DNA of 12,393 nt from Verrucomicrobiota bacterium (GTDB lineage: Bacteria > Verrucomicrobiota > Verrucomicrobiia > Verrucomicrobiales > DEV007), in assembly GCA_045046875.1 (NCBI GenBank), contig JASFYY010000046.1:1-12393 (forward strand), given 5' to 3'. The notes under the pieces were generated by a model that was given only the letters and a program-made list of their open reading frames with translations, searched no databases and was not told the DNA's origin. Both the position numbers and the translations under genes were made by a program. Position 1 is the stretch's first letter. Every line of letters starts with the position of its first letter. Shown here one piece after another: positions 1,049-12,393 of the stretch.

Positions 1049-4000
1049 ATGAAACGCAAGTGGCAACATCCTGAAACTCCCGACACCGGTCGTCAGTACT
1101 GGCGCAGTCTGGGCGAGCTTGATGAAAGCCCTGAATTCACTTCATGGCTGGAACGTGAATTCCCACAGGGAGCGGCAGAACTGGCCGGGCCGGAAACGGA
1201 CGGGGGAGTTTCACGACGCAATTTTGTCCGCCTGATGGGTGCGGCTACCGCACTGGCGGGTTTTGGCATGACTGCTTGCCGTCGCCCACGACGCTTTTTG
1301 GTTCCTTTCAACGAGCATGTTGAATGGAACGTGCCAGGGAATCCTTTGTTTTACTCCACGGTGAAACCGCGTATCGGCGGACTCGGTGGAGATCCGCTGG
1401 TGGTGACGACTCACGAAGGGCGTCCGACCAAGGTGGATGGCAATCGTCTGCACCCGACCGTTTCCGGTGGATCGGATGCTTTCATGCAGGCTTCGGTGCT
1501 GGATCTTTACGATCCGGATCGTTCGAATTTGTATTTGGCCAAAGGGAAAACTTCCAGTGAAGCGGATTTCACCGGTGAATTTCTCACCGAATTCCAAAAA
1601 GGGGTGGGTGACGGTACGGCTTTCTTGGTAGGGGACTCTTCTTCACCGACTCGCAATCGTTTGCTCTCTGAGCTGAAAGAACGTTACCCGTCGGCTGAGT
1701 TTTATCGTCACGAAGCGATTTCGCATGACGGTTGTGCGCAAGCGCAGGAGATTTTGTTTGGCAAAGGTGGTCGTCAGGTGACCCGTTTTGACCGGGCGGA
1801 GAAAATTTTGTCACTCGACTGTGACTTTCTTGGTCTCGACCGAATCGGTGAGGATCCAGTGAAGCAATTCACTTTGGGACGCCGGGTTGAGGATGCCAAG
1901 GGCAAGCTGTCTAAAAAGATGAATCGACTTTATGTCGTGGAACCAGCGTTCACGCTGACCGGCGGCATGGGGGATCACCGTTTGCGTTTGCCCGCAAGTC
2001 AGACTTTCAAAATTGCGGTCTTGTTTGCCCGTGAAATCGCCAAAGCAACCGGCGATGCGGCTTTGAAAAAAGCTGTGGCTGCTACGGCGGGACGCGTGAA
2101 CGGCGCGATTTTCAACCGCAAATGGATCGTGGAAGCCGCCAAGGATTTGGCCGCATCCAAAGGCCGGGCACTGGTGGTGGCGGGTTCTCGTCACGACAAA
2201 GAAGTGCATTTGCTGGTGGCAGCGATCAATACCGCACTGGGTGCTTACTCGGGTAGCAAAGCTTCCTTGCAAGTGGTGAATACGGGTCAAAAAGAAGCCC
2301 GTTTGCCAGGCATCGATGCCTTGGCGAAAAAGATGAAGTCTGATTTGGTGCGCACCCTGGTGGTGGTCGGCGAAACGGATCCGGTGTTTGATGCTCCGGC
2401 TGATTTGAATTTTGCTGAGCTGATGGCCAAAGTACCGGTATCGGTTCACTTGGGCGTGAGAAAAAATCTCACCGCCAAAGCAGCGACTTGGCATGTGCCG
2501 GGCGCACACTACCTCGAAAGCTGGGGGGATTTGCAATCGGTGACCGGAGTGTATTCCGCGATGCAGCCGATGTTATTGCCTTTGTATGGAGGCCTTTCGG
2601 AGATTGAATTTTTTATCCGCCTTTTGGCTGAGCCTGAAAAAGCACCTGCTGAAGGTGAGGAAGCAGCTGCCGGAGCAGCGGTGGCGATTGAAGACGTGCC
2701 TTTGCCTGGTTTGGCCGAAGTGAAAAAGACTTTTGCTACTTTGGCAAAAGGCGACGTGAAAAAAGCTTGGAACGCGACTTTGCGTGACGGTTACCTCGAC
2801 AAATCCAAATTTGCAGTAGCTGCTGGAGCCAAAGTGGACGTGAGCAAGGTGGAGGGAGCTATCGAAGGTGCCGAATTGGTCGACATGCCGTATGCCGAGT
2901 CGATCGAAGTGGTTCTGACCACCAGCGCGGCAATTTACGACGGACGATTTGCCAACAACGGTTGGATGCAGGAAGTGCCTGATCCGATCACCAAACTCAC
3001 TTGGGACAACGCGGCTCTGTTGAGTCAGGCGACCTTCGATAAGTTGGGTCTCAAAGAGGATGGAGAACTTTTGGAAGTCACTGTGGGTGAAACGGTTGTC
3101 AAGGTTCCTGCTTTGCGCAGTCCGGGCCAGGCCGATTTCACGATTACACTGGCATTGGGTTATTACGGCCACGATGCCAAGGGGCAGGAAGTGGAAATCG
3201 GTCGGGTGGGAACAGGTGTTGGTTTTAATGCTTATCCGCTGAAAACGACCGCAGCTTCTTACGTGGTGTCTGGCGCGAAAGTGACTGGCACGGGCAAAAA
3301 ACACATTCTGGCTCTCACTGCAGAACACTACAGCATGGAAGGTCGTGCTTTGGCTCGCGAAGTGACCCTGGACAATTTTGATGATGATCCTGATGCGGTG
3401 CAGAAGCACGGCATGGATGCTCACATTCCGGAAAACATCTCTTTGTATAAAGGGCCGGATTTCATGAACGCGGAAAACCCGGTGAACGATACCGAGCGTA
3501 GCAATCCGTGGAATTTCCCTTTCCGTGTCGATCCCGACCATCAGTGGGCGATGACAGTGGACTTGCATTCTTGTCTCGGTTGCAATGCTTGCACCGTGGC
3601 TTGTCAGGCAGAGAACAATATTCCCATCGTCGGTAAAGCCGAGGTGCTCAATGGTCGTGAAATGCACTGGATCCGTATGGATCGTTATTTCACTACCTTG
3701 AAACAGGAAGATCTTGCCAGCCAGTTCCGCGATGGAGACGGGGATCGCCCCGGTCGTCGCAGCGTGGACGATGACAATATCGAAATGATTCCGCAGTTGG
3801 TTAACTGCGCGCAGTGTGAAGCGGCTCCGTGTGAAACGGTTTGTCCGGTCAACGCGACGACTCATACCGGTGACGGACTGAACGCGATGACTTATAATCG
3901 CTGCATTGGCACACGTTATTGTGCTAATAACTGTCCCTACAAAGCACGTCGTTTCAACTTTTTCGACTTCAATAAACGTCCGCTCGACCAATTGCGTCTG

Positions 4001-4423
4001 GGACCTTTGGCTCCCGCTGAAGGCAATGCGACAACGACCGAGCAGTTGCAGAAAAATCCAAACGTCACCGTTCGTATGCGTGGGGTGATCGAAAAATGCA
4101 CCTACTGTGTGCAACGGATCACCACGGCTAAAGTGGCGGCGAAAGCCAAAGCCCGTGAGTCTGCGGATGTGCAAGTGCCGACCAATAAAGTGGAGACTGC
4201 CTGTCAGGTGGCTTGCCCGTCGGATGCGATTATTTTTGGGAACTTGAAAAACCCGAAAGATGATGTGAATCAGAAAAATTCCAAAGCTTCTCCCCGTAAC
4301 TACGAGATACTGAAGTACCTTGGGATTCGTGCTCGCACGACTTATCTAGGCAGGGTTCGGAATCCGAATCCAAGCATGCCGGGTGCAACGAAAGTGGGGC
4401 AGGCAACCGCGAAGATGCAATAA
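1049..4423 (+). CDS. actB: Alternative complex III subunit B (molybdopterin-oxidoreductase-like domain fused to a ferredoxin FeS domain; Tat substrate)
   Basis: N-terminal YWRSLGEL...EREFP leader, Tat motif SRRNFVRL, lipobox-like MTAC, then EGRPTKVDGN, QASVLDLYDPDRS and NNGWMQEVPDPITKLTWDN. C-terminal FeS motifs CLGCNACTVAC, CAQCEAAPCETVCP, CIGTRYCANNCP (3Fe-4S type) and KCTYC...ACQVACP. Confidence 0.96.
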   Translation: MKRKWQHPETPDTGRQYWRSLGELDESPEFTSWLEREFPQGAAELAGPETDGGVSRRNFVRLMGAATALAGFGMTACRRPRRFLVPFNEHVEWNVPGNPLFYSTVKPRIGGLGGDPLVVTTHEGRPTKVDGNRLHPTVSGGSDAFMQASVLDLYDPDRSNLYLAKGKTSSEADFTGEFLTEFQKGVGDGTAFLVGDSSSPTRNRLLSELKERYPSAEFYRHEAISHDGCAQAQEILFGKGGRQVTRFDRAEKILSLDCDFLGLDRIGEDPVKQFTLGRRVEDAKGKLSKKMNRLYVVEPAFTLTGGMGDHRLRLPASQTFKIAVLFAREIAKATGDAALKKAVAATAGRVNGAIFNRKWIVEAAKDLAASKGRALVVAGSRHDKEVHLLVAAINTALGAYSGSKASLQVVNTGQKEARLPGIDALAKKMKSDLVRTLVVVGETDPVFDAPADLNFAELMAKVPVSVHLGVRKNLTAKAATWHVPGAHYLESWGDLQSVTGVYSAMQPMLLPLYGGLSEIEFFIRLLAEPEKAPAEGEEAAAGAAVAIEDVPLPGLAEVKKTFATLAKGDVKKAWNATLRDGYLDKSKFAVAAGAKVDVSKVEGAIEGAELVDMPYAESIEVVLTTSAAIYDGRFANNGWMQEVPDPITKLTWDNAALLSQATFDKLGLKEDGELLEVTVGETVVKVPALRSPGQADFTITLALGYYGHDAKGQEVEIGRVGTGVGFNAYPLKTTAASYVVSGAKVTGTGKKHILALTAEHYSMEGRALAREVTLDNFDDDPDAVQKHGMDAHIPENISLYKGPDFMNAENPVNDTERSNPWNFPFRVDPDHQWAMTVDLHSCLGCNACTVACQAENNIPIVGKAEVLNGREMHWIRMDRYFTTLKQEDLASQFRDGDGDRPGRRSVDDDNIEMIPQLVNCAQCEAAPCETVCPVNATTHTGDGLNAMTYNRCIGTRYCANNCPYKARRFNFFDFNKRPLDQLRLGPLAPAEGNATTTEQLQKNPNVTVRMRGVIEKCTYCVQRITTAKVAAKAKARESADVQVPTNKVETACQVACPSDAIIFGNLKNPKDDVNQKNSKASPRNYEILKYLGIRARTTYLGRVRNPNPSMPGATKVGQATAKMQ

Positions 4424-4481: not shown

Positions 4482-5927
4482 ATGGCTAAGGGAACAACAG
4501 ATTCGAATCAGACGGTGCACCCGAGCGAAGCTCCAGGGGTGAAGCGTGAGTCGTTGGTTCTGAACAACCGCTCGATGAGCTGGATCACGGATCGCGTCTG
4601 CGGTATCGTGGAAAACCGCCAACCGTTTGTCTGGTGGATTTTGTTTGTGCCTTCAGTGCTATTGGCCTCATGTCTTGGTTACACCTTGGTGTATTTGGTT
4701 TCGACCGGTGTCGGGGTTTGGGGAAATAACCAACCGGTGGCCTGGGGTTGGGCGATTGTGAACTTCGTGTTCTGGATTGGTATCGGCCATGCGGGAACCT
4801 TGATCTCGGCGATTTTGTTTTTGACCCGTCAGAAGTGGCGGACCTCGGTCAACCGGGCGGCGGAAGCGATGACTTTGTTTGCGGTGGTTTGTGCGGGTAT
4901 TTACCCCGGTTTCCACGTGGGACGATTCTGGATGGTGTGGTTTTTGGCACCGGTTCCAAACTCCAACGAGATTTGGCAGAACTTCAAGAGCCCGCTGTTG
5001 TGGGATGTGTTCGCGGTTTCGACTTATTTCACGGTATCGGTGATCTTCTGGTATATCGGCTTGATTCCCGATCTGGCGACGCTGCGTGATCGCGCGACGA
5101 CCAAAGTGCGCAAGTTTCTCTACGGCATGTTCGCTCTCGGTTGGCGCGGTGGCAACCGGGCTTGGAAACACTATGAAATGGGCTACCTGCTGTTGGCAGC
5201 GCTTTCTACTCCACTGGTGCTCTCGGTGCACTCGGTGGTCTCCTTCGACTTTGCGACTTCAGTGGTGCCCGGTTGGCATACAACGATTTTCCCACCTTAT
5301 TTTGTGGCAGGGGCGGTGTTTGGTGGATTCGCCATGGTGCTGACTTTGATGATACCCATACGCAGTCTCTACGGCTTGCAGGATATGTTTACTTTGAAAC
5401 ATATCGACAACATGGCGAAGATCATTTTGCTGACCGGCACGATTGTGGGTTACGCCTACATCATGGAGCTGTTCATGGCGTATTTCTCAGGCAACAAGTT
5501 TGAGGGTGATGCTTTTTACATGCGGATCGTTAACGGCCCTTATACGTGGGCTTATGCTTGCATGTTCTTTTGCAACGTGATTGCTCCGCAGATTTTCTGG
5601 TTCGATAAAATTCGACGCAACCTGGTGGTGGTCTTCATCGTAGTGATGTTTGTGAATGCGGGTATGTGGTTCGAGCGTTTTGTGATCATCACGACTACTC
5701 TGGCACGTGACTTCCTGCCTGGGCAGTGGGGTTACTACAGCCCGACCTGGGTGGAGTGGTTGATGTTTGCCGGAACTTTTGGCTTGTTCATGATGTTGTT
5801 CCTGTTGTTCATCCGCTTCTTGCCAGTGATCGCGATCAGCGAGGTGAAAGGGGTGTTGCCGGAGTCGGACGCTCATTATCCTGATTGGCAAAAAATGAAA
5901 AAGGGACGTGCTGGAGCAGATGCCTAA
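4482..5927 (+). CDS. actC: Alternative complex III subunit C (NrfD/PsrC-family quinol-oxidising membrane subunit)
   Basis: Polytopic membrane protein with [74 protein letters not shown] and GMWFERF. The conserved His and Asp of the quinol-site region appear intact. Confidence 0.96.
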
Positions 5928-5973: not shown

Positions 5974-6534
5974 GTGAAGGCAACAACTAACAGCAAACCG
6001 GCCTACGGTTATGTCGCAGAGTTTGAAAACGCTACGGCGATTTATCACGCTGCGGAGAAAGTGCGCGACGCTGGCTTCAAACGCTGGGATGTGCATTCCC
6101 CTTATCCTATCCACGGCATGGATGCTGCGATGGGATTGAAAAAATCCTGGCTGTCGGCTTTGGTGCTGGCGGGGGGAGCGACCGGTGGTTTGACTGCGTT
6201 GTGTTTGCAGTTTTTTACCCAGGTGAATTTGTATCCCACCGTGGTGCAGGGCAAACCGACAGACTTCTCGACCTTGCCGGCTTTTTTCCCGGTGATTTTC
6301 GAACTGACGATTTTGCTTTCTGCGTTTGCGGTACTGGGTGGTTTGTTGGTGATCCTGATGTTGCCGCGTTTGAATCATCCGCTGCTCGCCTCGAAGACCT
6401 TTTTGAAATTTTCCGACGACGGATTTATTATGTCAATTGAAGCACGGGATCCGAAATTTTCCCGGGAACGGACCAAAGAAATGTTGGAGTCCTTGGGGGC
6501 AACCAATGTGGAGTTGGTCGAAGATGAAGTGTGA
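5974..6534 (+). CDS. actD: Alternative complex III subunit D (DUF3341 family)
   Basis: DVHSPYPIHGMDAAMGL, two TM helices, VQGKP...PAFFPVIFELTIL and FSDDGF motifs, positioned between actC and actE. The GTG start is less certain than the product. Confidence 0.92.
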   Translation: MKATTNSKPAYGYVAEFENATAIYHAAEKVRDAGFKRWDVHSPYPIHGMDAAMGLKKSWLSALVLAGGATGGLTALCLQFFTQVNLYPTVVQGKPTDFSTLPAFFPVIFELTILLSAFAVLGGLLVILMLPRLNHPLLASKTFLKFSDDGFIMSIEARDPKFSRERTKEMLESLGATNVELVEDEV

Positions 6535-6553: not shown

Positions 6554-7234
6554 ATGCGCTGGTTTTTTCTCATATTATTTATTGTAACGGTGGCCGTGGT
6601 TTCGGCGATCGGAGTTCGTGGTACGCGTTTCACGCAGCCGCCGATGGAGCTGTTTCCTGACATGGATCGTCAGTATAAGGTGAAGTATCAAAAACCCAGC
6701 GACAAGTTTGCTGACGGTAGCGGTAACCGCCTACCGGTGCTTGGCACCGTGCCGATTGGTTTTGAACTGCCCAAAGGGGACAATCGTGCTGCCAATGGCA
6801 AAGCAATCGCGGCTTTTGGATTCAGTCATTCGGATGACTATTATAACAGCGGACGTTTTGGTGATTATTACGGCGACGGCATTCCGTCTGAAGTGAAAGT
6901 GGATGCGGCGCTGCTCAAACGCGGCAAGCAGCAATACGAGATCAAGTGCACAATGTGTCACGGCGCATCCGGCAACGGCAAAGGCACGGTATCGAATTAC
7001 TGGTTGGGATTTCCGCCAAGTGCCGACTTGATGGCCCAGCTGATCAAGGACGCACCGGATGGACAGATTTTTTCTGCGATGACCAACGGCAAAGGCCTGA
7101 TGGGATCGTATAAGGGCATTATCACGGTGCAGGACCGATGGGCGATTATCGCTTATGTCAGAGCTTTGCAGTTTTCTTCTTCGGCGAAAAACGAGGGAGA
7201 AGTGAAAAAGGCTTTTGAACAAGCCCGAAAGTAA
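6554..7234 (+). CDS. actE: Alternative complex III monoheme cytochrome c subunit E
   Basis: Single CTMCH, FPDMDRQ, RLPVLGTVP, DGQIF, GKGLMGSY (distal Met) and DRWAIIAYVRALQ motifs. Hydrophobic N-terminal helix. Confidence 0.92.
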   Translation: MRWFFLILFIVTVAVVSAIGVRGTRFTQPPMELFPDMDRQYKVKYQKPSDKFADGSGNRLPVLGTVPIGFELPKGDNRAANGKAIAAFGFSHSDDYYNSGRFGDYYGDGIPSEVKVDAALLKRGKQQYEIKCTMCHGASGNGKGTVSNYWLGFPPSADLMAQLIKDAPDGQIFSAMTNGKGLMGSYKGIITVQDRWAIIAYVRALQFSSSAKNEGEVKKAFEQARK

Positions 7235-7263: not shown

Positions 7264-8823
7264 ATGAGCGCACTTAAGTCAGCAGATGATTTCCCAAAAG
7301 ACGGGGAAGCTCTGAACAAGTCGAAAACAGGAATGCTGAAAATGGTGTTTCTGGCAGTCGGCGTTGTCGGTTTGGTGTTGTTCGCCATCCTAGCGATGAC
7401 AGGAGGCGGAGAAGACGGAGAAGTTTCACGCCAGTCGATGATGGCTTATTCCTGGTTGTTTGCGGTGATGTTCTTTTTGACTCTCGCCGTGGGGGGGATC
7501 TTCTGGACGCTGGTTCATAATGCCACCAACTCGGGTTGGGGAGTGATGGTCAGGCGCTTGATGGAAAACCTCGGCAGTCTCACCCCGTGGATTTTGTTAT
7601 TGGGTTTGCCTTTGGTATTCTGTAGTGGTTTCAAAAACGCACTGTGGGAGTGGATTCCAGAGCAGGCGGCGTTGATCGAAGGCGGTGAAAAATACGCAAA
7701 AGCTCATTTGGAAGCTGAAAAAACCAAACGTGCGAAGGATTTGGAAGTATCCAAGGCTGACTTCAAAAAGCTGGAAACTGAAACAGCTGCGGCTTTGACC
7801 AAAGCGGGCGAGAACAAGGGGGAAGCGAGCTTTCTCAATGAGCGTCTGGTGCATGCCAAAAGTAAGTTGGCGGAATTGGAAGAGGGGCAGTTGGATGACA
7901 AAGCCCTGAGCAAAGAGCTGCAGGTTCACTTCATGAAACACGGTGACGGTGAAGGCGGTCACGGTAATCCTTTGTTGTTCCACAAAAGTGGGTATTTGAA
8001 CATAGGTTCATGGGTGATGCGTTACATCTTTTATGTGCTTGGTCTGGGTGGGGTGATTTACACTTTGAGGAAATGGTCGATTGCCCAGGATAAAACGGGT
8101 GATCCTAAGTATACCCTTTTGATGCGTCGTTTCAGTTGTGCCTTTATTGCGGTGTTTGGTATTTGCTGGACTTTCCTGGTGGTCGACTGGTTGATGGTCT
8201 TGGATTACACCTGGTTTTCGACCATGTGGGGCGTTTACCTTTTTGCCGGAGCCGCTTTGAGCTCGATGGCGTTGCTGATTGCTTTGCTGACTTACTTGCG
8301 CAGCCAGGGGCATTTCAAAGACACCGTGACCATGGAGCACTACCACTTGATGGGTAAGTTGCTGCATTCCTTTGTGATCTTCTGGGCTTACATTGCGTTC
8401 AGTCAGTTTTTCCTGATCTGGTATGCCAACATCACTGAAGAAACCAAGTTCTTCCTGTTGCGTAACACAGACTTTTTTAATACCTACACCATCAGCTTGT
8501 TAGTGATCGGTCACTTCTTCATTCCTTTTGCCGCATTGTTGGTGCGTCAGGTCAAAAAGACCCCGGCACTGATGGTGGCCATCTCGGTTTGGATTTTATT
8601 GATGCAGATCGCTGACATCTATTGGATCATTATCCCCGAGCGTGGGGTATCCCTGACGGGTGGGGCGCAATTGGTCATCCCAGGTGCGATCTGGTTTGAT
8701 GTATTGGCCTTTATTACGGTGGGTGGTATTTTCGGATTCCTCTTGCTGCGCAGTCTGGGCAAATCGAGTTTGTATCCCAGCCAGGATCCTCGCCTGGAAG
8801 AATCTTTGAACGTGGTGAACTGA
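7264..8823 (+). CDS. actF: Alternative complex III subunit F (membrane subunit, ActC paralogue) with a large hydrophilic insertion
   Basis: GWGVMVRRLME, KSGYLN, DWLMVLDYTWFSTMWG, HLMGKL, FWAYIAFSQFFLIWYANITEET and C-terminal DPRLEESL motifs, with about 10 hydrophobic segments. Confidence 0.93.
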   Translation: MSALKSADDFPKDGEALNKSKTGMLKMVFLAVGVVGLVLFAILAMTGGGEDGEVSRQSMMAYSWLFAVMFFLTLAVGGIFWTLVHNATNSGWGVMVRRLMENLGSLTPWILLLGLPLVFCSGFKNALWEWIPEQAALIEGGEKYAKAHLEAEKTKRAKDLEVSKADFKKLETETAAALTKAGENKGEASFLNERLVHAKSKLAELEEGQLDDKALSKELQVHFMKHGDGEGGHGNPLLFHKSGYLNIGSWVMRYIFYVLGLGGVIYTLRKWSIAQDKTGDPKYTLLMRRFSCAFIAVFGICWTFLVVDWLMVLDYTWFSTMWGVYLFAGAALSSMALLIALLTYLRSQGHFKDTVTMEHYHLMGKLLHSFVIFWAYIAFSQFFLIWYANITEETKFFLLRNTDFFNTYTISLLVIGHFFIPFAALLVRQVKKTPALMVAISVWILLMQIADIYWIIIPERGVSLTGGAQLVIPGAIWFDVLAFITVGGIFGFLLLRSLGKSSLYPSQDPRLEESLNVVN

Positions 8824-8832
8824 TACTTAATA

Positions 8833-9309
8833 ATGAATAAGGAACATCCACAAGACAATGCCCAGAGCCGCTTCACCGCGTTTTGGATGATTGTGATTTC
8901 ACTGCTGGTTTTTGTGGTGGTCATTTCATTCATCCTGTGTTTCAACTCTTCGAATGAAGATGCCGCAGCCAATGCGGGAGAAAATGAGAGGGCGGGACAA
9001 CGCCTGAAAAAGTTAACCGAAGTGAACGCAGCGCAGCAGGCCCTGATCACTCAAGTCGCAGTGGTCGATAAAGAGAATAATTTGGTTCGCATTCCGGTGA
9101 CGGCTGGAATGAAACTGATCCTGCCGGATTTGAGAAAACAAAAAGCCGCTGTTAGTAAAGTGGTGGTGCCAGGATCTCCTACCAGTTTGAAACAAGCCCA
9201 GGCGCAGGCCAAAGCTGCGGCAGCAGTAGCAGAGAAGAAAGCTCCTGCGAAAAACGAGGCGGCGGCGGATAAAGCCGCCCCGGTCAAAGCGGCGGCGGAT
9301 AAGAAATAA
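8833..9309 (+). CDS. ActG-like single-TM accessory subunit with an Ala/Lys-rich C-terminal tail
   Basis: One N-terminal TM helix, an amphipathic helix, then VVDKENNLVRIPVTAGMKLI, which resembles the VDxxxGxVRIPIxxAMxL motif of the small gene following actF in ACIII clusters. Assignment rests on position plus this short motif. Confidence 0.7.
   Translation: MNKEHPQDNAQSRFTAFWMIVISLLVFVVVISFILCFNSSNEDAAANAGENERAGQRLKKLTEVNAAQQALITQVAVVDKENNLVRIPVTAGMKLILPDLRKQKAAVSKVVVPGSPTSLKQAQAQAKAAAAVAEKKAPAKNEAAADKAAPVKAAADKK
9259..9302 (+). repeat. 14-bp direct repeat GCGGCGGCGGATAA x2 (AAADK peptide repeat)
   Basis: Copies at 9259-9272 and 9289-9302, 30 bp apart and in frame within the low-complexity tail. 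Confidence 0.85.
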
Positions 9310-9330: not shown

Positions 9331-10821
9331 ATGAGTGAAACCATGCAAGAGGCAAGCGTACAAGACATACAGGAAAGGGCGGCGATTGATAAATCCGCTC
9401 GACTCCCTGTGTTGTTTTTCTTCACATCGGCAGCCGGTTGGTTGTTTCTGGCGACCTTGTTGGGTTTTGCCAGTTCGGTGAAACTGGCCGCGCCCGAGTT
9501 GTGGGATGCCTGCCCTTGGTTGGCCTACGGACAGCTTTTCCCTGCCCACATGGATTCGTTGATTTACGGATGGGGCATGCAGGCGGGTTTTGGAGTGATG
9601 ATTTGGTTGATGGCTCGCCTGTGCCGGGTGGAGATCAAAAACGGGGTTACTTTGGTGGCTGCGGGTTTTGTCTGGAATCTGACGATTCTGTTTGGTGTGG
9701 TTGCGGTTTGGAGTGGTTACGGCAACTCAATGCCCTGGCTTGACTTCCCCGCTTATTTGTGGCCGGCGATGTTCCTTTCTTACGCGGTGATCGCTGGTTC
9801 ACTGCTGATGATGTTCCGTCGTCGTCGGGAAGGGGAGGCTTATATCTCGCAGAAGTATATCTTTGGTGCGGCTTTGTGGTTCCCTTGGATCTTTGCCGTG
9901 GCTAACTTGATTTTGAATCACACCGGTGGATCGGCATTGATGAATGCAGGGGTTAATGCCTGGTTCATGAACAACCTGATTTATTTCTGGTTTGTTCCCG
10001 TGGGTCTGGCTTCAGCTTATTATATCATCCCCAAGATTGTCGGTCGTCCGATCTACAGTTACCAGTTGGCGCAGATTGCTTTTTGGGCACTGGCCGTATT
10101 GGCAGGATGGACCGGGTTTAACCGTTTCCTCGGCGGGCCGTTCCCTTCGTGGATGCCCGCGATCAGTGGAGCCGCGATCATCTTGATGTTATTGCCGATC
10201 GGTGCAGTGGCGGTGAACCTCCTGGGAACCATTTCCGGTCGTGGAAGTTTGATGCACTTCAGTCCTTCACTGCGCTTCACCGTTTTTGGTGGCATCATGT
10301 TTAATCTGTATGGGTTGCTGGTTGCCTTTTCATCCTACTTTGACATCAGCCGTTTGTTGCAGTTTTCTTACGCGACGCTGGGGTATGACATCATGGTGGT
10401 TTACGGTTTTTTCTCGATGGTGGTTTTCGGAGCGATCTATTTCATCGTGCCGCGCATCACCGGATGTGAGTGGCCTTCGGCCAAACTGATCCGTTTCCAC
10501 TTTTGGTATAGCTCTTACGGCATCATCACCATCGTGGCCTTCATGGTATTTGCCGGACTGGCGCAGGGTGGAGCGATCGACGATTGGAGCGGAGACTTCA
10601 TGGACTCGGTTCGTCGTGGCAAAGGTTATATTGTGGCCTTGGCGGTTGCCTGGGCATTAATTTCCGTGGCTAATCTGGCCTTTTATTACCAGTTGTTGAT
10701 GATGGCATGTGGCAAAGGCCGGAAGTCAGAAGGTCCCACTTTGATTCACAAAAATCCCGGTGAAGCGGCGAGTGCTGAAGCGGCAGCCGGTTTTGCACCA
10801 GAAGATACTGCAAAAGCATGA
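9331..10821 (+). CDS. cbb3-type (C-family) oxidase subunit I homologue (CcoN/FixN-like) lacking CuB and heme b3 ligands; predicted non-catalytic
   Basis: About 12 TM segments and CcoN-like segments WLAYGQLFPAHMD, YISQKY, YYIIPKIVGRPIYSYQLA..FW, GAIYFIVPR and HFW. It overlaps a ccoO-like gene. Only 5 His in 496 aa (H73, H197, H309, H390, H473), and only H73 falls at a canonical ligand position. Confidence 0.88.
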   Translation: MSETMQEASVQDIQERAAIDKSARLPVLFFFTSAAGWLFLATLLGFASSVKLAAPELWDACPWLAYGQLFPAHMDSLIYGWGMQAGFGVMIWLMARLCRVEIKNGVTLVAAGFVWNLTILFGVVAVWSGYGNSMPWLDFPAYLWPAMFLSYAVIAGSLLMMFRRRREGEAYISQKYIFGAALWFPWIFAVANLILNHTGGSALMNAGVNAWFMNNLIYFWFVPVGLASAYYIIPKIVGRPIYSYQLAQIAFWALAVLAGWTGFNRFLGGPFPSWMPAISGAAIILMLLPIGAVAVNLLGTISGRGSLMHFSPSLRFTVFGGIMFNLYGLLVAFSSYFDISRLLQFSYATLGYDIMVVYGFFSMVVFGAIYFIVPRITGCEWPSAKLIRFHFWYSSYGIITIVAFMVFAGLAQGGAIDDWSGDFMDSVRRGKGYIVALAVAWALISVANLAFYYQLLMMACGKGRKSEGPTLIHKNPGEAASAEAAAGFAPEDTAKA

Positions 10822-11492
10822 AGAAAGAGTTTCCAGTTTTTATCCTTGGTTTGGCTGCGGCATTTATCGTGCCTTTGATCTTCTTGATCGTGGTGCCTTA
10901 CCTGCAGTTGAGTGACGCCAAACCGGAGAATTACTCCGAAGAAGATGATGTCGTGGCGGCCTGGGCTTACCCGGCTGTGTGGACAGGGGCGAATAAGGAG
11001 GGTGAGGAAGTTTATGCTTCCCAGGGTTGTGCTTATTGCCACACTCAAATGGTGCGTCCGACTTACGCCGGTGCTGATATGTGGCGCAAGGGCTGGGGAG
11101 GTAATGAAGAAGAGGGTTTGGCCCGTGAAACCCGTGCGGCGGATTATACCAATGATCGTCGTGCGATGCTCGGTTACATGCGCATCGGTCAGGATCTGGC
11201 TAATGTGGGAACCCGTAACAGGGATCGCGCCTGGTATCATCAGAAGCTCTACAATGCCCGCACCCAGAATGTGGATTCGAGCATGCCTTCCTATAAAAAT
11301 CTCTATCGCAAACAACAGATTGCCCAACCTTCGGAAAATGCGATCAAGCTGAAAGGGCGTTTTGCGGTGGAAGAAGGTTATGAGGTGGTGCCCACCGAAA
11401 AAGCAGAAGCTTTGGTGGACTACCTGTTATCGCGCAAAATGGATGCTCCGATTCCTGGGGCAGGGACAGATGAAGAAGTGGCCGCTAAGTGA
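10818..11492 (+). CDS. ccoO: cbb3-type oxidase subunit II-like monoheme cytochrome c (CcoO/FixO family)
   Basis: N-terminal TM helix, GEEVYASQGCAYCHTQMVRP, RIGQDLANVG (cf. RTGPDLARVG), WYHQKLYN, SSMPSY (distal Met) and ALVDYLLS. ATGA overlap with the upstream stop. Confidence 0.88.
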   Translation: MKKEFPVFILGLAAAFIVPLIFLIVVPYLQLSDAKPENYSEEDDVVAAWAYPAVWTGANKEGEEVYASQGCAYCHTQMVRPTYAGADMWRKGWGGNEEEGLARETRAADYTNDRRAMLGYMRIGQDLANVGTRNRDRAWYHQKLYNARTQNVDSSMPSYKNLYRKQQIAQPSENAIKLKGRFAVEEGYEVVPTEKAEALVDYLLSRKMDAPIPGAGTDEEVAAK

Positions 11493-12247
11493 TCATGGAC
11501 GATAAAAATTCTACAGAATCAAATTTGGATTATCAAGGGGGGCGTGCTGCCGTTCGCGATGGGCATGACTCTGTGCGTCGGGAAAAACCGGAACCGGTTG
11601 CCGGAGGCAGTAACAAGGTATTGATTTCCTGGGTGGCCGGAGCGGGCATCGTTTTGATGATGGCTGGTGGTTATTTCAATGGTTACAGCAATTCTTTTGA
11701 TAGCAGTGATTCATACATTTATCCTGGTTATGTGGCTGCGGCGCGACCTGTCGTTGAGGGGGTAGATGCAGATGCTGAGCAGAAACCTTGGATCGAGGTC
11801 TGGATGAAGGATGGCAAAAAAGTTTACACTAACTGTATCGCTTGTCATCAGGCGGCTGGAACGGGAACACCTGGATTATTCCCACCACTTAAAGGGTCGG
11901 AATGGGTGGATGGGGGAACCGAGCGTTTGGGCATGATCGTATTGAGCGGTATTTTGGGACCTTTGAATGTTTCTGGTTCGACCTACAATCAGCCGATGCC
12001 GGCATGGGGAGCTTTGAATGATGAAAAACTCGCTCAGGTGCTGACTTACATTCGGCGTGAATTTGGAGAATTGCCAGAAGGACAGAGTGGAGTGGTGACC
12101 AAGGAGATGATGAAAGCTGCGCGTGAAAAACACGTCAAACGCACCTCCCCTTGGACGGAGGCCGATTTGTTGGCGATCCCTGGGGATGCGGAATTGCCAG
12201 GCGTAGAAGTGGATTTGAATACCGGGCAACCCGTTGCTGGAGAATAA
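11489..12247 (+). CDS. Membrane-anchored monoheme class I cytochrome c
   Basis: One TM helix (VLISWVAGAGIVLMMAGGYF), GKKVYTNCIACHQAAGTG, FPPLKGSEWV, QPMPAW (distal Met) and LAQVLTYIR. The start is either GTG 11489 (GTGA overlap with the ccoO stop) or ATG 11495. Confidence 0.9.
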   Translation: MIMDDKNSTESNLDYQGGRAAVRDGHDSVRREKPEPVAGGSNKVLISWVAGAGIVLMMAGGYFNGYSNSFDSSDSYIYPGYVAAARPVVEGVDADAEQKPWIEVWMKDGKKVYTNCIACHQAAGTGTPGLFPPLKGSEWVDGGTERLGMIVLSGILGPLNVSGSTYNQPMPAWGALNDEKLAQVLTYIRREFGELPEGQSGVVTKEMMKAAREKHVKRTSPWTEADLLAIPGDAELPGVEVDLNTGQPVAGE

Positions 12248-12326: not shown

Positions 12327-12393
12327 ATGAGCGCGTCAACCACGACTCACGAGCAATCAGAGAGCAGCAGTGATCATCACGATCATCACGATC
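12327..12393 (+). CDS. 5' fragment of the next gene (MSASTTTHEQSESSSDHHDHHD...), probably heme-copper oxidase subunit I
   Basis: ATG at 12327 after an A-rich spacer, open to the window edge and not in the ORF track. His-rich N-termini are typical of A-type oxidase subunit I proteins in ACIII-linked clusters. With only 22 codons visible, the product is an inference. Confidence 0.5.
   Translation, partial: MSASTTTHEQSESSSDHHDHHD
12372..12393 (+). repeat. Tandem 9-bp repeat GATCATCAC (DHH), at least 2.4 copies, truncated by the window end
   Basis: GATCATCAC at 12372-12380 and 12381-12389, then GATC at 12390-12393. Confidence 0.85.

Follow-up and report, generated by a model that had tools for sequence, protein, structure and literature searches.

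A verrucomicrobial contig of 12,393 nucleotides (JASFYY010000046.1, analyzed over its whole length and hereafter called the window) carries, between the genes for alternative complex III (ACIII) and those for an aa3 oxidase, an intact gene for a CcoN-fold membrane protein in which five of the six histidine ligands and the cross-link tyrosine are replaced. Sequence comparisons indicate that this gene is under purifying selection and that ligand loss in its family occurred more than once. Judged by the defining ligands, the protein is not an active member of the C family and, most likely, is a structural subunit. On balance, we lean towards the reading that it serves as a cofactor-free scaffold for a two-cytochrome relay from ACIII to the CuA center of aa3.

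Gene, fold and ligand positions

The window contains the following features:

119-1000, +: actA, with five CxxCH motifs
1049-4423, +: actB
4482-5927, +: actC
5974-6534, +: actD
6554-7234, +: actE
7264-8823, +: actF-like gene, labeled by position and similarity across loci; no Pfam match
8833..9309, +: small single-helix membrane ORF, 158 aa, between actF and the CcoN-like gene; ActG-like by position only
9331..10821, +: CcoN-like gene, encoding a CcoN-fold membrane protein without five of the six His ligands and the cross-link Tyr (PF00115, 147 bits)
9547..9549, +: His73, the sole retained ligand position (H60 of 3MK7), from the phmmer alignment to 3MK7_A
9970..9984, +: Asn214 (nt 9970; formerly the CuB His, H207) and Tyr218, from the 3MK7 alignment and comparison with intact relatives
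10102..10125, +: Ala258 (formerly the cross-link Tyr, Y251) and Asn264/Arg265 (nt 10120-10125; formerly the CuB His pair, H257/H258)
10384..10392, +: Tyr352-Asp353-Ile354, with Tyr352 replacing H345 and Ile354 replacing H347 (heme b3 and heme b His)
10651..10653, +: Trp441 of the final helix (mostly Gly among intact relatives)
10818..11492, +: CcoO-like membrane monoheme cytochrome c (PF02433, 58 bits); CxxCH and distal Met kept
11489..12247, +: c552-type membrane-anchored monoheme cytochrome c (PF00034); start GTG 11489 or ATG 11495
12327..12393, +: beginning of coxA (subunit I of aa3), truncated where the contig ends; 22-nt overlap with contig C29

A previous sequence-only reading of this DNA had described the CcoN-like gene as full length and overlapping an intact ccoO, and this description holds: the ORF of 496 aa is free of internal stops, its end overlaps the start of ccoO by 4 nt (10818-10821), and ccoO retains both the heme-binding motif and the distal Met. 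The closest solved structure is P. stutzeri CcoN (3MK7_A; phmmer E 1.9e-27, 23% identity), and the alignment contains no gaps within any of the ligand motifs. In this alignment, which the earlier reading had proposed, only His73 occupies a ligand site (one of the six His of the C family), and the His and Tyr losses reported there from visual inspection were reproduced together with their nucleotide positions. Further replacements relative to 3MK7 are R57 to Phe70, E122 to Pro135 and E125 to Asp138. Among the proton-channel, heme and Ca2+ positions, whose roles in cbb3, like those of the ligand residues, come from the cbb3 literature, Tyr230 (Y223 of 3MK7) is kept, and Val222 (T215), Ala247 (S240), Phe324 (Y317), Phe70 (R57) and Pro135 (E122) are changed.

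The AlphaFold model of the protein, built with 69 relatives as input (pLDDT 88.6), matches 3MK7 with a TM score of 0.84 (Z 49.3, rmsd 2.1 over 444 residues), whereas the Z scores against NorB are lower (41-43); the predicted structure has the 12-helix COX1 fold and is closest to CcoN. The TIGR00780 score is 107.6 bits, against a cut-off of 583, and six-His relatives from the same ACIII-linked operon slot likewise fall below this cut-off (229-247).

Across 40 six-His relatives, 104 positions are at least 97.5% invariant, 97 of them non-ligand positions and seven ligand positions. The CcoN-like protein retains 68 of the former and only one of the latter (Fisher p 0.006); because the non-ligand positions are mostly kept, the loss of the ligands is, by this measure, targeted, beyond what drift would produce. 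The cross-link Tyr, replaced here by Ala258, is a Tyr in 40/40 of the intact relatives. A sequencing artefact does not account for the pattern because all 120 of the closest listed proteins and all 80 of the best loci also lack the ligand set. The ligands by which NO reductases are recognized (the binuclear His set or two His and an Asp, the high-spin heme His, and the low-spin heme pair) are missing as well, with Asn214, Asn264, Arg265, Tyr352 and Ile354 in their places. The adjacent gene encodes a monoheme CcoO subunit, as in the C family. Almost certainly, the protein would reduce neither O2 nor NO. The host genome also encodes a canonical fused CcoNO that scores above the TIGR00780 cut-off, with an adjacent CcoP-like gene, and a qNOR (G000:C44:5885-8467, G000:C149:44873-47383); therefore, the cell does not depend on the CcoN-like protein for the reduction of either gas.

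Relatives, selection and the history of ligand loss

The protein search yielded 886 relatives, and the best 120 of these (50-97% identity) each keep two of the six His at most; Arg265 is present in all 120 and His73 in 116. None of the best 80 of the 555 confirmed genome loci, all of which are titled Verrucomicrobiota, retains more than three His, and His73 is found in 72 of these. Ligand-intact members are absent from all 200 close relatives (best 120 of 886 proteins and best 80 of 555 loci), and intact orthologues are only ~31-40% identical to the window protein. The profile search produced at least 150 clusters at 50% identity; exclusion of one that also belonged to the close set and of 12 shorter than 400 aa left 137 distant representatives. 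Among the matches listed, 69 of these have none of the six His, 43 have one, 18 two, two three, one four and four all six, and His73 is present in 15 of the 137. The six-His clusters listed include a protein from Telmatocola (Planctomycetota) and a Burkholderiales cluster; metagenome relatives of the Telmatocola protein are encoded behind actF in the same gene order. A metagenome scan with an intact relative as the query recovered 6 loci, and the ESM Atlas search returned COX1 clusters only.

Some relatives display other combinations of ligands. L095 (G048) retains both low-spin heme His and has lost all the binuclear ligands, and P0132 retains four His; both half-stripped forms are candidates for a one-heme intermediate. 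L125 and L126 (G060, G189) encode another CcoN variant with all six His, and the gene that comes next is CcoO-like and diheme; L160 (G057):6287-8841 carries a canonical ccoNO split between two frames, with a six-His ACIII-slot copy elsewhere in the same genome.

The view of the CcoN-like protein as a maintained pseudoenzyme, which the sequence-only reading had put forward, gains support from the dN/dS analysis (Nei-Gojobori; 81 sequences, 104 pairs at least 80% identical, of which 58, sharing some branches, had dS below 1.5). The median dN/dS is 0.074 (range 0.008-0.286), and none of the 58 pairs approaches 1; the comparison of the window gene with L005, which is near saturation, gives 0.055. 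For the same loci, the medians are 0.047 for coxA (40 pairs), 0.090 for actF (28) and 0.114 for ccoO (35). Thus, the gene is, on these ratios, under purifying selection, and recent decay, the alternative that the earlier reading had tied to ratios near 1 with ligand-intact close orthologues, is ruled out by values far below 1. At the sequence level, the protein combines lost catalytic residues, an open frame and purifying selection, the hallmarks of a pseudoenzyme.

To trace the ligand state within the phylum, 251 genomes were sampled from Verrucomicrobiota, and the ACIII-linked slot could be read in 59. In 33 of the 59, the slot gene retains six His and the Tyr, and in 26, which include the window's own genome and one with a truncated orphan copy, it retains at most two His. 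The ligand-intact orthologues that occupy this slot belong to families other than the window's, a fact that the sequence-only reading had no means of seeing. In trees of the ACIII-linked homologues, which the sequence-only reading had proposed and which were built here with the seven ligand columns removed, the window protein branches among the six-His ACIII-linked orthologues, apart from canonical CcoN. The number of state changes required is 4 in the 78-row FastTree, 5 in the 33-row IQ-TREE and 4 in a quick 33-row run, counts that give no direction of change. Two f6 sequences without the ligands group with an intact one, also from f6 (support 99/96), and a single clade of the 19 ligand-less rows, that is, a single origin of the ligand loss, is rejected at p-AU 0.016 in a set of 33 rows picked after the 78-row tree had been viewed. 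On this phylogenetic basis, ligand loss occurred more than once; we read the changes as losses rather than gains because the six-His relatives found in other phyla branch outside this group and the regain of six ligands is implausible. By the same trees, the CcoN-like protein descends from an ACIII-linked C-type oxidase. Branches are longer in the ligand-less lineages.

The layout of the operon predates ligand loss, given that intact and ligand-less loci share cox gene orders: the downstream coxA-coxC-coxB order of intact G174 is the same as that of the window, and the order coxB-coxA is common to intact G005 and ligand-less G216. An A-type CoxA match was found in 26/26 ligand-less genomes vs 26/33 intact ones, with no match at E 1e-20 in the remaining seven (Fisher p 0.014, inflated by kinship; four of the seven belong to one genus), so that a tie between ligand loss and the presence of an A-type oxidase is suggestive only. 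A plausible history would start from an operon encoding ACIII together with a working C-type oxidase of the atypical kind; in lineages that had access to an A-type oxidase, the active site of the C-type enzyme might have been dropped, with the helical bundle and the cytochromes kept.

Across all lineages, 63 positions are kept, mostly Gly, Pro, Trp and helix-end residues. Ser247 is replaced by Ala in 194/201 close relatives, 13/13 f7 sequences and 100/121 distant ones, and in the ligand-less groups, Thr222 and Arg70 have mostly been replaced. Of the 21 glycines invariant in intact relatives, those at 218, 331, 356 and 441 became larger residues in several ligand-less lineages, those at 303 and 238 in fewer and that at 202 in a single lineage, the others remaining small. 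In the AlphaFold model, positions 218 and 356 are each one turn away from a lost His on the same helix. Position 218 is Gly in 40/40 intact relatives and Tyr in 155/201 members of the window protein's group; position 441, in helix XII, which lines the low-spin heme, is Gly in 38/40 intact relatives and Trp in 200/201 close ones. The pocket glycines and the proton-channel Ser changed alike in separate lineages, and we read the enlargements at the glycines as the probable filling of empty pockets. A polar pair, Arg265/Asp353, is present in 175/359 ligand-less rows, and one guess is that it forms, together with His73, an internal staple. Position 53 was considered as a new His ligand: it is His in 64% of the distant representatives listed and Ala in the window protein, and it is also His in 95% of the intact relatives; therefore, this His is ancestral rather than new, and the candidate was discarded.

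Operon context and possible functions

The 22-nt overlap between the end of the window contig (C46) and that of C29 is unique within the assembly, and C29 carries coxA (ligands present), coxC, coxB, ctaA, ctaB and sco. Downstream of the CcoN-like gene, the best 80 of the 555 loci encode ccoO (80/80), a cytochrome c gene (79/80) and coxA (76/80); three of the four loci where coxA was not seen end too early, and in L006 ctaA follows directly. Upstream, actF is present in 66 of these best 80 loci, and 13 contigs begin too close to the gene; in L064, the nearest 10 kb contain no act gene, and actC lies elsewhere in the genome. An ORF similar to the small ORF of the window, for which no PDB match was found, is present at 121/125 loci. 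In Verrucomicrobiales, the operon order is fixed: actA-F, small ORF, CcoN-like gene, ccoO, c552-type cytochrome, aa3 genes. The segment from actF through the cytochrome c gene, which marks the clade of atypical CcoN in the ACIII slot, is complete in the window.

Individual loci vary in several respects. The ActF-like protein of the window contains a charged insertion of ~100 residues, with no Pfam or NCBIfam match. The small ORF is fused to a CxxCH cytochrome domain in 3/125 loci (e.g., L038, L150). In L075, L076, L082 and L084 (Prosthecobacter/Brevifollis), actE-F, the CcoN-like gene and the cox genes lie apart from actA-D, with actC on another contig or elsewhere. L006:1-15123 has no coxA-coxB after the cytochrome gene, and its actA, actB and cytochrome gene seem split, through either assembly errors or decay. 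In L122 (G132):11222-18144, an insertion of ~7 kb separates actF from the small ORF. L131 (G153):9013-11179 encodes a 347-aa truncated CcoN-like protein with ccoO and the cytochrome in a genome without an ACIII match, possibly a case of late decay, and in the methanotroph locus L186 (G039):9193-12097, coxC and coxB come immediately after ACIII, the CcoN-like gene, ccoO, the cytochrome gene and coxA all being missing at the locus. In L187 and L188, the ACIII operons are followed by a gene set that, from its sequences, resembles that of the Na+-translocating NADH:quinone reductase.

For the profile of the third gene of the module, the strongest match is to the cytochrome domain found in three-domain Cu nitrite reductases (E 2e-40); cytochrome c552 (1C52) is matched at E 3e-32 and, more weakly, CcoP at E 3e-21. 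Cytochromes of the first two kinds donate to copper sites. In most relatives, intact or not, a near-invariant His26 and, after it, an Arg-Glu motif precede the membrane helix of this third-gene cytochrome (11489-11620 in the window). The CxxCH motif of CcoO is present in 80/80 loci (best 80 of 555), and the distal Met is absent in 6/70 aligned rows, every one of these beside a ligand-less CcoN-like gene. ActA is a pentaheme protein in 48/50 ActA ORFs, the other two being partial, and of the 63 CoxB ORFs, 61 contain the CuA motif and none a CxxCH cytochrome domain. According to the accessible text of PMC8552683, ACIII is linked to A-type oxidases either by a sixth, mobile ActA heme (F. johnsoniae) or through a caa3 with its own cytochrome (R. 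marinus); with a pentaheme ActA and a CoxB free of a cytochrome domain, both of these links appear to be absent here. The inserted three-gene module is a candidate for the ACIII-aa3 link.

We favor the scaffold-relay reading because both known links are absent, the third gene is c552-like and the heme motif of CcoO is kept at all 80 loci. ACIII would pass electrons to the CcoO-like and c552-type cytochromes, held in the membrane by the CcoN-like protein, and the two cytochromes would relay these electrons onward to the CuA center of the adjacent aa3. The parts of this reading differ in strength. The protein likely binds no heme or copper, and the binding of no b heme at all is highly probable. 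A role as a scaffold for the two cytochromes is probable, and we give slightly better than even chances to the relay to aa3 being the selected function in the lineage of the window protein. More tentatively, subunit I might have become a cofactor-free adaptor at least 3-4 times independently in Verrucomicrobiota, with the two cytochromes wiring together an ACIII-adaptor-aa3 supercomplex, which would be a third type of ACIII-complex IV junction.

Several observations count against parts of the scaffold-relay reading. Among the other ligand-less genomes, 18 were examined, and 16 of these encode, away from the module, an A-type oxidase whose CoxB bears its own cytochrome c, so that the relay cannot be the only reason why the CcoN-like protein persists. 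Nor does ACIII need the module: G070 and G238 have ACIII and lack the three genes, and the methanotroph genome G039 (99% complete) contains no ccoO/FixO match. The 94% conservation of His73 in the close family is not explained by a bare scaffold. In intact operons, the electrons would end at CcoO, and the CcoO heme has no evident part to play once heme b is lost.

These points bear on the main competing explanation, a structural role without the relay, which we regard as unlikely, if the most serious of the alternatives: the c552-type cytochrome, CcoO or the ACIII supercomplex would require the CcoN-like protein to fold, insert or stay stable, the CcoO heme would be a dead end, and the c552-type cytochrome alone would carry electrons to any acceptor (aa3, caa3, canonical cbb3 or NOR). 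Such a role fits the persistence of the gene where a caa3 lies elsewhere (the 16 of 18 genomes), the loss of the distal Met of CcoO in 6/70 rows, the prevalence of Gly, Pro, Trp and helix-end residues among those kept, and the longer branches of the ligand-less lineages; the truncated orphan copy of G153 and the loss of the module in G039 resemble late relic stages. It sits less well with the retention of CxxCH by CcoO in 80/80 close loci (best 80 of 555), at a dN/dS of 0.114, and with the fact that, in Verrucomicrobiales, these genes stay beside an aa3 without its own cytochrome. Quite improbable, in our assessment, is that the protein still binds a single heme via His73, either five-coordinate or completed by a newly acquired ligand, and works as a gas sensor, heme carrier or buffer of electrons. 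His73 is present in 116/120 listed close proteins and 72/80 best loci, a helix XII Arg is kept in 151/201 close relatives, albeit not in the window protein, and His/Met and His/Lys low-spin hemes are described for nNOR and eNOR in the accessible text of PMC11214002. Yet His73 is missing in 122 of the 137 distant representatives listed, Arg70 is replaced by Phe and Gly441 by Trp, and position 354, the ligand site opposite, shows no consensus (Thr, Ile, Met or Val). The specific version proposed in the sequence-only reading, a heme bound by His73 with Tyr352 or Met355, fails on conservation, as position 352 is Tyr in only 22/338 relatives and position 355 Met in 17/338 (338 from listed matches), and ligand-adjacent glycines became Tyr218 and Trp441.

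The same reading had also raised a transport role, which finds little support after the loss of the proton-channel Ser and Thr positions. In this explanation, to which we assign a very low probability, the emptied pockets or the old proton pathway would form a transporter or channel through which protons, ions, lipid or gas pass. Tyr230 and Asn296 are retained, and Arg265/Asp353 is a new conserved polar pair, but the pair belongs mainly to one lineage, no new polar residue is common to the lineages, Ser247 and Thr222 are lost, and the pocket-glycine substitutions add bulk. Least probable of all are a reductase that continues to act on O2 or NO at an unusual site and, alternatively, a pseudogene in decay. 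Database entries for relatives do carry the name "cbb3-type cytochrome c oxidase subunit I", an Asp takes the place of one His in gNOR (PMC11214002, accessible text), and one truncated copy exists (G153). Against these stand the loss of all three CuB/FeB His and both other heme His with no conserved His, Glu, Cys or Met as substitutes, the dN/dS of at most 0.29 in 58 pairs, and the intact canonical CcoNO and qNOR of the genome.

Methanotrophs and comparison with known systems

In three genomes with pMMO genes (G093, G111 and G132), the slot gene retains one of the six His. Each of these has a single FixO match, at the ACIII-slot locus, and no CcoN above the cut-off, and their COX1 genes of 465-476 aa bear the NorB motif. 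Given that the ligand-less copy is the only cbb3-like gene in these genomes, their affinity for O2 would have to be supplied by ba3 or aa3. If the adaptor interpretation is true, the "high-affinity cbb3 oxidase" credited to verrucomicrobial methanotrophs would not exist as an oxidase. More generally, annotation likely over-counts high-affinity oxidases in bacteria with the CcoN-like protein, which affects the ecology inferred from genomes. The ligand-less family, apparently selected and repeatedly arisen, forms with its extant intact and half-stripped relatives a natural series from a respiratory enzyme to a structural part, and the module offers a testable answer to the question of how a pentaheme ACIII reaches an aa3 without a cytochrome domain.

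The operon itself was already known, and the loss of the ligands apparently was not described before: no description was found in the main text of the open-access literature searched, and the accessible parts of PMC3362086, PMC4013037, PMC6431628, PMC5615132, PMC13608581 and PMC13274419 do not mention it. The accessible text of PMC8498564, citing Refojo et al. 2010, restricts the C-type oxidase with ACIII to verrucomicrobial methanotrophs and Opitutaceae. In the text available from PMC6688271, PMC10205796 and bioRxiv 2024.01.15.574570, the slot gene is counted as cbb3, and two of the three call it high-affinity; the accessible part of the bioRxiv report gives its transcripts as unchanged between oxic and anoxic growth. 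The window protein shares with this ACIII-linked C-type oxidase the slot and the partner genes, and the six-His, Tyr-bearing orthologues are its relatives in the tree. Unlike the published enzyme, treated as a working high-affinity oxidase in the accessible text of PMC8498564 and PMC6688271, the slot gene is ligand-less in 26/59 genomes, three of them pMMO-encoding.

Compared with CcoN of 3MK7, the protein has the same 12-helix fold, CcoO partner gene, His60 position and helix-end motifs, but lacks five His and the Tyr251, Arg57, Glu122, Thr215 and Ser240 positions. Unlike in a cbb3 operon, the third gene encodes a c552-type monoheme cytochrome instead of the diheme CcoP, and the locus lies between ACIII and aa3. 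As in the ACIII-aa3 (F. johnsoniae) and ACIII-caa3 (R. marinus) supercomplexes, the ACIII genes are followed by an A-type oxidase, and a membrane-bound cytochrome c link is expected (PMC8552683 and PMC5928083, in their accessible parts); unlike in these, there is here neither a sixth ActA heme nor a CoxB cytochrome domain. The fold and the absence of the cross-link Tyr are shared with the NO reductases (cNOR, qNOR, gNOR, nNOR and eNOR), but these retain their metal ligands, with one His changed to Asp in gNOR, whereas the window protein has lost the whole binuclear set (PMC11214002, accessible text, for the reductases). The ligand-less family also contrasts with the heme-copper rule in the same text, by which three His bind CuB, the Tyr is cross-linked and the His ligands are completely conserved except for the gNOR swap.

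Emptied subunits have parallels in other respiratory complexes. ActF and CydB are cofactor-free paralogous subunits of such complexes. ActB is a cofactor-free paralogue without molybdenum, according to the accessible text of PMC8552683. Like these three, the CcoN-like protein would keep the fold of a redox enzyme for structure after the loss of the cofactors; unlike these, which sit beside their partners in a single complex, the protein is a heme-copper oxidase's own catalytic subunit I, and it appears to have been emptied several times.
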